Origin: Escherichia coli O127:H6 str. E2348/69 | Lineage (GTDB): Bacteria > Pseudomonadota > Gammaproteobacteria > Enterobacterales > Enterobacteriaceae | Reading direction: 5' to 3' (one strand) | Assembly: GCF_000026545.1 (NCBI RefSeq) | Contig: NC_011601.1 | DNA length: 64,000 bases | Shown here: piece after piece, positions 29,901-32,900 of the stretch | Position numbering within the stretch: position 1 is the stretch's first letter | Layout of the letters: every line of letters starts with the position of its first letter | Program-made: the position numbers

Positions 29901-32900
29901 CTTAACAAGCCGAAAGAGAAAGCAACCTGGCTTACAGGAGCCCCCAGCTTGGCAGAAAGCGCACCGTTAAACAGACTCCAGGTATAAACCGACCCCAGAG
30001 CAAACTGGGTAATGATAGTACCGATGAGTGTCAGCCAGCGAGTACGCTGATAATTTGAAGGTGTCATGGCAGTATTCCTGCAGTAATAAAAAGGAAAAAT
30101 CTCTGCTGACAACCATAACGAAGTGCGCTTTATGCCTGGGGAAAAACGGCATGAAATGCCATCAGAACGGAATGAAATGCATTAGTTCAGGAATGAATGA
30201 CTCGACAATTATTCGCCAAATTTATTATTTAGTAAGTTAGTCCCCACTATCGCCACATTAGTTGTTATTTATGGCTTTTAATTGTATCTATAATGTTAAA
30301 ATCTGGCACTAACCCCCATCGTATACAGATAGTCGCTATTGTTAGTGGTATTTTCTGCCTGAGATAGCGCAGCATAGGCAGCAATATTTTGATTGAGCAA
30401 CATATCAGCGCCTACGGTGACATCCAGCCAGTTGCCGTTCTGGTTTGTCGCCGTCATCCGGCTCAGGCCTGATTGCGCCTTCCAGATATTCTCGCCAAAT
30501 TGCTGGTTATAGCTGATTTGCGCCCAGGGTCGGAGATCGCCAAGCCGGGAGTCAACACGCCAGCCTAAGGTACTCACGCTGGCATGCCATAACGGCTCGG
30601 CCAGCGTGGTAGTACTGTCGCCAAACTCGTTATACATCGAGGTGGTTGTGCCATCGTAATGTAATGCCGCGACCGGGCCAGTTGTAACCTGCTCATATAA
30701 AGGAAAATTCCAGCCCATACTCATACTGCTGGTCACATCCACAGGGGTTTCTTCCGCCAGATTGACTTCCAGTCCCAGCGCCCTTTGGCTACTTTGAATA
30801 CGTTGCGACAAAATATCGTTGTAATCAGGTTGATGATCGCTATCCCAGGTGTAACGCTCTGTGGCATGTCCGGGTTGCGTATCAACGATATATTCTTGTT
30901 GCCAGGCGTAAGCTGTGTTGAGAAAAAAGGCACTGATTACCACGCTCGCAAGCAGGCAGGCTTAGCTGCCAGCGACCACCGCTTTTTTTTATGATCATTA
31001 ACACGACTCCAGGGAAGAGCCGAATTCGGCAATATTATTGTCATTGTATGAAGGATATCGGGCATAGTAGCCCTGTATTAAATATTGACTTTTTCACCGA
31101 TGCGTCAAGAAAAGCGGCTGAAATTTTTACGATCGGGTACATAGCGAGGGAAAGTATGGAACGTTGCGGCTGGGTGAGTCAGGACCCGCTTTATATTGCC
31201 TACCATGATAATGAATGGGGCGTGCCTGAAACTGACAGTAAAAAACTGTTCGAAATGATCTGCCTGGAAGGGCAGCAGGCTGGATTATCGTGGATCACCG
31301 TCCTCAAAAAACGCGAAAACTATCGCGCATGCTTTCATCAGTTCGATCCGGTGAAAGTTGCCGCAATGCAGGAAGAGGATGTCGAAAGACTGGTACAGGA
31401 CGCCGGGATTATCCGCCATCGTGGGAAAATTCAGGCAATTATTGGTAATGCGCAGGCGTACCTGCAAATGGAACAGAACGGCGAACCGTTTGCCGACTTT
31501 GTCTGGTCGTTTGTCAATCATCAACCACAGGTGACACAAGCCACAACGTTGAGCGAAATCCCCACATCTACGCCCGCCTCCGACGCCCTATCTAAGGCAC
31601 TGAAAAAACGTGGTTTTAAGTTTGTCGGTACCACAATCTGTTACTCCTTTATGCAGGCATGTGGGCTGGTGAATGATCATGTGGTTGGCTGCTGTTGCTA
31701 TCCGGGAAATAAACCATGATTCGGGAAGCGCAACGTTCAGAACTCCCCGCGATCCTCGAACTGTGGCTGGAAAGTACAACCTGGGGGCATCCCTTTATAA
31801 AAGCGAATTACTGGCGTGACTGCATTCCGCTGGTGCGGGATGCGTATCTTGCCAACGCGCAAAACTGGGTCTGGGAAGAAGACGGTAAGCTTCTCGGTTT
31901 TGTCAGCATTATGGAAGGCCGATTTCTGGCAGCAATGTTTGTCGCACCAAAGGCCGTCAGACGCGGTATTGGTAAGGCGCTGATGCAATATGTGCAGCAG
32001 CGCTATCCCCATCTGATGCTGGAGGTTTATCAAAAAAATCAACCGGCGATAGATTTCTACCATGCGCAGGGTTTTCACATTGTCGATTGCGCATGGCAGG
32101 ATGAAACCCAACTACCCACCTGGATTATGAGCTGGCCGGTGGTTCAAACGCTGTAAGTGTCAGTTCCGGACCGTTGTATTTTTCCAGCCATGCCAGCGCC
32201 GTATTACCCGCACAGCCATTCCCCAGCCGCGAGCTGGGGAGATCTTTGGTCAGCACGTTCACTGCGCCGTTTTTACAAATGCCGCCAGCGGTTAAATCCA
32301 AATCCGGCCATGCGCCTTCGTGAATACAAATCACGCCAGGTTTAATTCCCTCGCTAATGACCGCGCCGGCAAGAATTTGCCCGCGTGAGTTCCACAGCCG
32401 AACAGTATCGCCATCTTGTATGCCGCGCGTCTGGGCATCGTCAGGATGAATGGTGACAGGCTCACGATTTGCCACCGCGTACAATTCGCGCAGAGAACTG
32501 TAATTCAGCTGGCTGTGCAGACGATGCGCCGGATGAGCAGAAAGTACCTGCAACTGTTCCGGTTCGGCACTGCCCTGCCATTCGTCCGGCGCCAGCCACA
32601 TTGGATGCCCCGGGCAATTCAACCTGCTGGCTTGCCCCGCGCTGCCGGGCAACGTTATAAAACGTTTCCAGCCATTGCAGCTCACTTTTTCCTTCCGTAA
32701 AACGTGCATAACCGCCCTTCTGCCAACGTTCACTCAAGTCGGCAAAAACATCAAAATCATTACGCGCTTCATCGCGTGGCGGCACCACTTGCTTCATCGG
32801 CACCAGATGCTGATTACTGTAATCACCGGTCATGGTGAGATCATTACGCTCAAAAGAGGTAGTCGCAGGCAGAACGATATCCGCGTGTTTTGCCGCCGCC

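Follow-up and report, generated by a model that had tools for sequence, protein, structure and literature searches.

Does the yhjY gene of Escherichia coli O127:H6 strain E2348/69, the prototype strain of enteropathogenic E. coli (EPEC) that is in wide use, still give rise to an outer-membrane protein, or has it been lost? We address this question for a stretch of 64,000 nucleotides from this strain (NCBI RefSeq assembly GCF_000026545.1, contig NC_011601.1; hereafter the window, to whose positions all coordinates refer), in which yhjY lies on the minus strand at 30296..30998 and spans 703 nt, from its native start codon (ATG) through its native stop codon. An earlier note, made from the sequence of the window, had held that a tandem repeat near the 5' end disrupts the reading frame of the gene and had predicted loss or N-terminal truncation of its product. 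From our analysis yhjY of E2348/69 is very probably a recent, lineage-private pseudogene generated by a 4-bp duplication, and the strain most likely has no YhjY in its outer membrane.

Frame break in yhjY

On the minus strand yhjY opens with ATG ATC ATA AAA AAA AGC GGT GGT CGC TGG CAG CTA AGC CTG CCT GCT TGC GAG…. Translation from the ATG at 30998 yields MIIKKSGGRWQLSL, then PACERGNQCLFSQHSLRLATRIYR, and is ended by a TGA at 30884-30882. The body of the gene (…VVISAFFLNTAYAWQQEY…ARF), which forms a long open reading frame (ORF) with the C-terminus …YLYTMGVSARF*, the stop codon at 30298-30296 and its last base at 30296, sits in a different frame, i.e. the native ATG leads out of the frame of the gene body, just as the earlier note had read it. 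The span of 703 nt is no multiple of 3 and an intact frame of 232 codons is absent from E2348/69: the frame is lost after codon 14 (Leu14) and the shifted frame terminates at codon 39. Two partial ORFs result on the minus strand, a shifted N-terminal one of 38 aa (30882..30998), MIIKKSGGRWQLSLPACERGNQCLFSQHSLRLATRIYR followed by TGA, and a residual one of 215 aa in the body frame, which runs from a GTG at 30943 (30296..30943), the earliest canonical start codon available to it, and belongs to a frame that is open only from a TAA at 30964-30962.

The frame is broken at the tract GCCTGCCTGC (30952..30961, minus strand), which consists of 2.5 copies of a tetranucleotide and, by alignment with the alleles of strains A25 and K-12, corresponds to the ancestral GCCTGC plus four bases. 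The repeat unit can be read in any of four phases (GCCT, CCTG, CTGC or TGCC); the repeat CTGCCTGC, which had been placed within 30945-30960, is found at 30959..30952 as part of this tract. Removal of any one copy yields an ORF of 699 nt coding for 232 aa with …QLSLLASVVISAFF…, the product of which starts with MIIKKSGGRWQLSLLASVVISAFFLNTAYAWQQEY. In itself the repeat pattern occurs at chance frequency, as 2.5-copy tetranucleotide tandems start at 19 positions of the 64-kb window vs. about 16 expected (64000/4^6), and Tandem Repeats Finder, run on 30200-31100, did not report the 10-bp tract, which is too short. What makes the duplication meaningful is thus the comparison with other genomes and not the repeat pattern.

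Distribution of the duplication in E. coli

The closest reference is yhjY of K-12 (b3548, UniProt P37663, 'uncharacterized protein YhjY'), and the A25 orthologue is WP_024248320.1. The gene order bisC-yiaC-tag-yhjY-yhjX is common to E2348/69, A25 and K-12, and the broken gene lies between tag and yhjX as it does in K-12, in agreement with the name that it had been given. Alignment with A25 and K-12, which read AAGCCTGCT(T/G)GCG where the window reads AAGCCTGCCTGCTTGCG, reveals exactly four extra bases in E2348/69, and the restored coding sequence (CDS) is identical to that of A25. The yhjY locus was found in 5,417 of the 5,426 complete E. coli genomes that served as comparison set, at about 95-99% identity, the nucleotide identity of the region over these 5,417 genomes being 96.8-99.5%. 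A junction query of 44 nt (window 30936-30979), for which no match can seed unless the duplication is present, matched three of these 5,426 genomes, all of them E2348/69 or its derivatives. With a query of 80 nt the same picture emerged: three genomes matched at 100%, all other matching genomes at ≤95%, equivalent to a 4-nt gap. The 851-bp region around yhjY is matched at 100% by the complete genomes NZ_CP059840.2, which is E. coli E2348/69, and NZ_LT827011.1 and NZ_LT903847.1, which are O127:H6 records derived from E2348/69. The length of the locus was further inspected in 60 evenly spaced records, 59 of which are not E2348/69; 54 of the latter match the full query at the expected 847 bp, one at 848 bp, three over 99% of the query, and one match is split. 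The alignment with yhjY of other E. coli genomes, which had been proposed as a check, thus reveals a 4-bp tandem duplication relative to all others, and among the reference alleles there is none in which CTGCCTGC lies within a continuous frame.

Some sequencing technologies commonly introduce small indels as errors, and a sequencing or assembly artefact might mimic such a lesion. However, this 4-bp insertion lies outside a homopolymer and is shared unchanged by three complete assemblies of separate projects and by eight further ones, which stem from different runs. The 215-aa gene-caller product of the broken gene occurs on at least 39 contigs of the protein collection, and the eight further contigs that were retrieved (source assemblies GCA_053076565.1; Logan SRR2601723, SRR1577771 and SRR1577773; ENA ERZ761553, ERZ761555, ERZ761558 and ERZ773354) all contain AAGCCTGCCTGCTTGC and match the window at 100% identity over 2.6-3.6 kb. 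As eight independently assembled contigs share the junction, an assembly error is ruled out and the artefact explanation, to which we assign a negligible probability, is effectively refuted. One of these contigs, ERZ761555 NODE_151, has the yhjY duplication and at ~2665-3055 departs from the window inside yhjX (truncated, 315 aa), from where it runs on into an amino-acid-kinase gene; either it was assembled as a chimera or it comes from a rearranged relative.

The same distribution bears on the idea that the tract is a reversible slippage switch, i.e. that the outer-membrane protein is subject to phase variation. The lesion does alter how many copies of a short tandem unit are present, a change that the same slippage could in principle revert, and its target is a protein of a surface compartment. 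Likewise, in the tetranucleotide contingency loci of Haemophilus and Neisseria a change in copy number near the 5' end of an envelope gene shifts the frame. The tracts of known contingency loci are, however, much longer: the yhjY tract has 2.5 copies (1.5 in the ancestor), far below their lengths, and, in contrast to these loci, the assemblies compared show no copy-number polymorphism in the strain or the species. Across the 5,426 genomes only two states occur, the longer one being limited to one strain, and no copy number other than these was seen; moreover, all 11 independent assemblies of the E2348/69 type have the same OFF state. Hence we regard phase variation as highly unlikely.

Alternatively, the frame might be restored by programmed ribosomal frameshifting or transcriptional slippage, and there are runs that might serve this purpose, namely a U6 run (CUU UUU UCU) in the shifted frame ahead of its stop and an A8 run at codons 3-5. 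Yet the intact frame is universal, i.e. no other E. coli would need recoding at this site: the duplication is absent from complete genomes other than the three of E2348/69, and the A25 and K-12 alleles, examined in detail, each have one continuous yhjY frame. Moreover, the product of a +1 slip on the U-run, MIIKKSGGRWQLSLPACERGNQCLF-LNTAYA…, would still have no hydrophobic core, and loss of one A from the A8 run would lead into the body frame upstream of the TAA at 30964-30962, where translation would terminate. Recoding can hence be given hardly any credence. The artefact, programmed recoding and phase variation were all rejected as explanations of the yhjY duplication.

Consequences for the protein

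The N-terminus of intact YhjY has three Lys or Arg residues among the first 10 aa, an uncharged core of 14 residues (LSLLASVVISAFFL) and an AYA cleavage motif. Restoration of the frame by removal of one repeat copy therefore brings back a continuous ORF together with a normal Sec-type signal peptide, as had been predicted, and such a signal peptide is present in the restored, ancestral protein and missing from the E2348/69 allele, where its core is replaced by PACERGNQC. The 38-aa frameshift product retains three Lys or Arg residues among its first 10 aa, but its longest uncharged run is six residues and the hydrophobic core is lost. According to the mechanism that we propose, ribosomes starting at the native ATG would leave the frame after Leu14 and terminate at codon 39, releasing a 38-residue peptide devoid of the hydrophobic core; the barrel-encoding body would not be translated from the native start, and products of downstream starts would have no working export signal.

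Whether the body might be translated from a start of its own depends on the codons ahead of it. The native ATG is preceded by a Shine-Dalgarno sequence, GGAG (31007..31010, minus strand), and its pairing with the anti-Shine-Dalgarno sequence has a duplex energy of -7.0 kcal/mol, as compared to -2.2 kcal/mol for the GTG at 30943 and -1.8 kcal/mol for a CTG at 30955. For 2,000 random window positions, which we used as reference, the median is -2.8 kcal/mol and the 5th percentile -7.0 kcal/mol, i.e. the next start has no Shine-Dalgarno sequence. Ribosomes from the native start pass both the GTG and the CTG and terminate ~60 nt further, so that coupling by reinitiation would be unavailable to either codon. 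As the GTG lacks a Shine-Dalgarno sequence and would give only a stub of a signal peptide, the E2348/69 allele is most likely null, judged by its sequence features, which agrees with the predicted loss of the protein.

Some observations weigh against a null allele. The stub MVISAFFLNTAYA retains the AYA cleavage motif and eight uncharged residues, weak initiation may occur at the GTG or the CTG, and the Prokaryotic Genome Annotation Pipeline (PGAP) annotates a CDS of 219 aa with an apparent CTG start, as read from its coordinates, in strains with a different N-terminal frameshift. A shortened functional YhjY might accordingly be made from the GTG (215 aa) or the CTG (219 aa), with MVISAFFLNTAYA as its minimal signal peptide; the body frame is open starting at 30961, the equivalent 219-aa CDS is called in EC6622 and C439, and the 215-aa product is called on the contigs mentioned above. 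However, the pairing energies of both codons are no stronger than the random median, both lie within an ORF whose translation begins at a strong native start, and the stub, with no Lys or Arg among the first 10 aa of the GTG product and a longest uncharged run of eight, has no positive n-region, its core being cut from 14 to 8 residues. Moreover, the prediction of a gene caller is no evidence of expression. We thus consider a shortened functional YhjY unlikely and favour a null allele.

The strains with the 219-aa annotation have variants of their own. The A8 homopolymer at 30983-30990 (minus strand), which covers yhjY codons 3-5, is A9 in strain EC6622, and strain C439 has one extra bp in the matched yhjY region. 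In both, PGAP gives a 219-aa CDS and no pseudogene, the start in EC6622 mapping to the CTG, which is inconsistent with its treatment of E2348/69. These variants may be genuine N-terminal frameshifts that arose independently, or else errors of homopolymer sequencing.

Origin and age of the lesion

The four-base tandem duplication would have arisen within the region coding for the signal peptide. GC-CT-GC contains a 2-bp direct repeat, and if the nascent strand misaligned by one 4-bp register, GC-CT-GC-CT-GC would result; replication slippage between the two GC dinucleotides is, from the local sequence, the most likely mechanism. The slipped-strand duplication postulated in the earlier note thus stands as regards the 4-bp duplication; slippage itself is deduced from the sequence.

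Apart from the four bases the coding sequence has remained that of the intact A25 allele and shows no secondary decay, and as the pseudogene has no further changes the duplication is recent. Comparison with K-12 gives 8 synonymous and 5 non-synonymous differences, corresponding to a ratio of non-synonymous to synonymous rates (dN/dS) of ~0.17, albeit from small numbers. Since the gene is, moreover, intact in nearly all genomes, these figures point to purifying selection on intact yhjY elsewhere.

In each of the three RefSeq records of E2348/69, PGAP lists yhjY as a pseudogene with the remark 'frameshifted', and its counterpart of the gene at the equivalent coordinates is H4J01_RS01105 (CDS, pseudo, 'frameshifted'). 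Hence, the frameshift is no new discovery; it is already annotated and is an ordinary lesion. A literature search for pseudogene lists of E2348 returned nothing specific.

Predicted pairing with the small RNA RybB

RybB is a σE-dependent small RNA, and a site for pairing with its 5' seed, AAAAGCGGUGGU, is predicted at 30975..30986 (minus strand), which corresponds to positions +13..+24 of the mRNA and to yhjY codons 5-8. Nucleotides 1-12 of RybB, whose sequence was verified with Rfam RF00110, would pair with the yhjY mRNA over 12 contiguous positions at -19.3 kcal/mol (duplexfold), a value matched by 0.8% of 500 shuffles. The prediction fits the listing of yhjY as a new RybB target in a TRIC-seq preprint (bioRxiv 10.1101/2025.09.11.675593). 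The predicted site is identical in K-12, A25 and E2348/69 and lies upstream of the duplication, and is thus retained in the pseudogene.

One and the same synonymous change in YhjY, S21S, was reported from 5 of 12 rifampicin-resistant populations that had evolved independently, with no measurable gain in fitness (bioRxiv 10.1101/2023.01.13.524028). Codon 21 (AGT) corresponds to window 30932-30934 (minus strand), ~18 nt downstream of the site of the duplication and outside the predicted RybB site, and a change of AGT to AGC leaves the predicted pairing unchanged.

Properties of intact YhjY

Restored YhjY scores 46 bits against PF03797 (cut-off 26), aligning only to model positions 119-253 of 255, and 21.6 against TIGR01414 (cut-off 16); the Pfam and NCBIfam assignments are the same for the K-12 orthologue. 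The match to PF03797 is partial, i.e. YhjY does not contain a complete 12-stranded β-domain. Only ~55 residues separate the signal peptide from the barrel-homologous part, leaving no passenger domain, and a Pfam search of restored YhjY gave no domain besides PF03797, in particular no Lipase_GDSL. The designation 'autotransporter-like' given earlier is therefore borne out as far as β-domain models above their cut-offs are concerned, but it does not extend to a passenger domain, and the match takes in no more than about half the barrel model. The C-terminus, …GVSARF, ends in the aromatic residue of the β-signal for the β-barrel assembly machinery (BAM), and this Phe is invariant in an alignment of 18 family sequences.

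An exhaustive search of 1.84 billion representative proteins returned only 111 relatives of YhjY. These form two groups: the short forms (175-240 aa) share the architecture of YhjY, and the long forms (~660 aa) carry Lipase_GDSL and a complete autotransporter domain. One long form, P0034, matches EstA from P. aeruginosa (PDB 3KVN) with E 1e-34.

AlphaFold2 with 18 family members gave a mean predicted local distance difference test score (pLDDT) of 68, with the strands mostly above 90, and a helix at 58-70 followed by about eight strands; a single-sequence AlphaFold2 model of restored YhjY was unusable (pLDDT 34). Foldseek against the PDB returned only weak, generic matches to outer-membrane barrels (best E 3e-3, template modelling (TM) scores 0.3-0.4, all E >1e-3). 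A phmmer search with YhjY of PDB sequences had no match at E ≤ 1, and a family profile matched one autotransporter chain in the PDB, 9oqa_A, in its C-terminal part only. Homology models of YhjY were described as 'deformed or broken barrels' in a review (PMC7383365), and no functional study of YhjY was found in the literature that mentions yhjY.

The locus and its neighbours

PGAP features were placed on the window via NZ_CP059840.2 181054-245053, the reverse complement of which is identical at 64000 of 64000 positions. Both neighbours of yhjY are intact: tag, coding for DNA-3-methyladenine glycosylase I, lies upstream and is divergent (31156..31719, plus strand), and yhjX, coding for a transporter of the major facilitator superfamily (MFS), lies downstream (28865..30067, minus strand). 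Because yhjY and yhjX are separated by a 228-bp spacer and annotated separately, a polar effect on yhjX appears unlikely. A consensus scan gave a σ70-like promoter candidate upstream of yhjY, TTGACG-16-AATATT (31081..31108, minus strand); the number of σ70-like sites does not exceed the shuffled expectation, making this promoter assignment weak. A terminator scan found no terminator-like site 3' of yhjY on the yhjY strand, and Rfam detected no RNA family at E ≤ 1 in 29800-31800.

Close to yhjY, bisC (window ~32125-34276, minus strand), which codes for biotin sulfoxide reductase, is likewise a pseudogene in E2348/69. Relative to A25 it has a deletion of 182 bp with the junction at 32613-32618, flanked by a 6-bp microhomology, GGCAAT; PGAP describes the gene only as 'frameshifted'.

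Further features of the window include a long polar fimbriae operon (lpfA, lpfB, lpfC, a fimbrial protein gene and lpfE; 23031-28518, minus strand) between yhjX and eptB, directly downstream of the yhjY-yhjX pair; K-12 presumably has no lpf operon at the yhjX-eptB position. A three-gene toxin-antitoxin module composed of helix-turn-helix (HTH), HipA-N and HipA-family toxin genes (12463-14089) is located between dppF and yhjV, an IS200C tnpA (9427-9885) between ldrD and bcsG, and a gene of the DUF4862 family (60620-61540) between yiaL and yiaM in the 2,3-diketo-L-gulonate (yiaK-O) cluster.

Discussion

The loss of YhjY in E2348/69 is probably selectively neutral. It would be of greater consequence if the loss of this RybB-controlled envelope protein had been selected in the EPEC1 lineage, i.e. 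were pathoadaptive, or were reversible by slippage, which we consider decidedly unlikely; E2348/69 would then be a natural knock-out revealing the role of a conserved remnant. Even as an ordinary pseudogene, the lesion most likely makes E2348/69 a natural yhjY null (with bisC lost as well), which matters for experiments on the envelope, on σE and RybB and on the outer-membrane proteome in this strain, and the strain may serve as an existing mutant in studies of this functionally uncharacterised protein. Beyond such bookkeeping the lesion is of little consequence.

The lesion is of a common kind in the species, in which 45-95 pseudogenes are usual per chromosome (PMC2617782). Like other strain-private frameshift pseudogenes of E. 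coli, yhjY of E2348/69 has a small indel in a short direct repeat, is confined to one lineage and is undecayed, and nothing sets it apart from them.

The intact protein resembles what an ancient internal deletion would leave of an EstA-type GDSL-lipase autotransporter, namely the signal peptide, ~40 residues from the N-terminus of the lipase domain and the C-terminal half of the barrel, a reading based on alignments with the long forms. This reading would explain the old label 'putative lipase' of YhjY. As the catalytic GDS motif, the passenger and half of the barrel are missing, YhjY is neither a lipase nor a complete autotransporter and should not be treated as either, and yet, though internally deleted, it is kept intact in nearly all E. 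coli. At the position of the GDS motif YhjY has IVDTQPG, whereas the long forms P0034, P0054 and P0073 have FGDSLSD; the position varies among the short forms, and the catalytic serine of GDSL lipase block I is absent from YhjY.

YhjY and the EstA-type autotransporters correspond in two separate pieces. YhjY 57-232 aligns with P0034 486-665 at 39% identity (BLASTP E 3e-40; hhalign probability 99.95), sharing the terminal Phe, and YhjY 1-66 aligns with P0034 1-69, i.e. with the signal peptide plus some 40 residues at the start of the GDSL domain (AYAWQQEYIVDTQPGHATERYTWDSDHQPDYNDILSQRI aligned to ASAWDQLYVFGDSLSDSGNNGRYTWDGSTHPLYDDILAEKI); in addition, a profile of the mature N-terminus of the family scores 36.9 bits on P0034 residues 32-71. 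In contrast to the long forms, YhjY lacks ~420 residues (about P0034 70-485), which account for nearly all of the passenger, for the linker and for the barrel model's first half. The two pieces join at DY(N/D)DI, a motif that the long form has twice (YDDIL at 61-65 and DYDDI at 486-490), and this arrangement suggests that YhjY may have originated from an EstA-type autotransporter by an old internal deletion of ~420 residues between short similar sequences.

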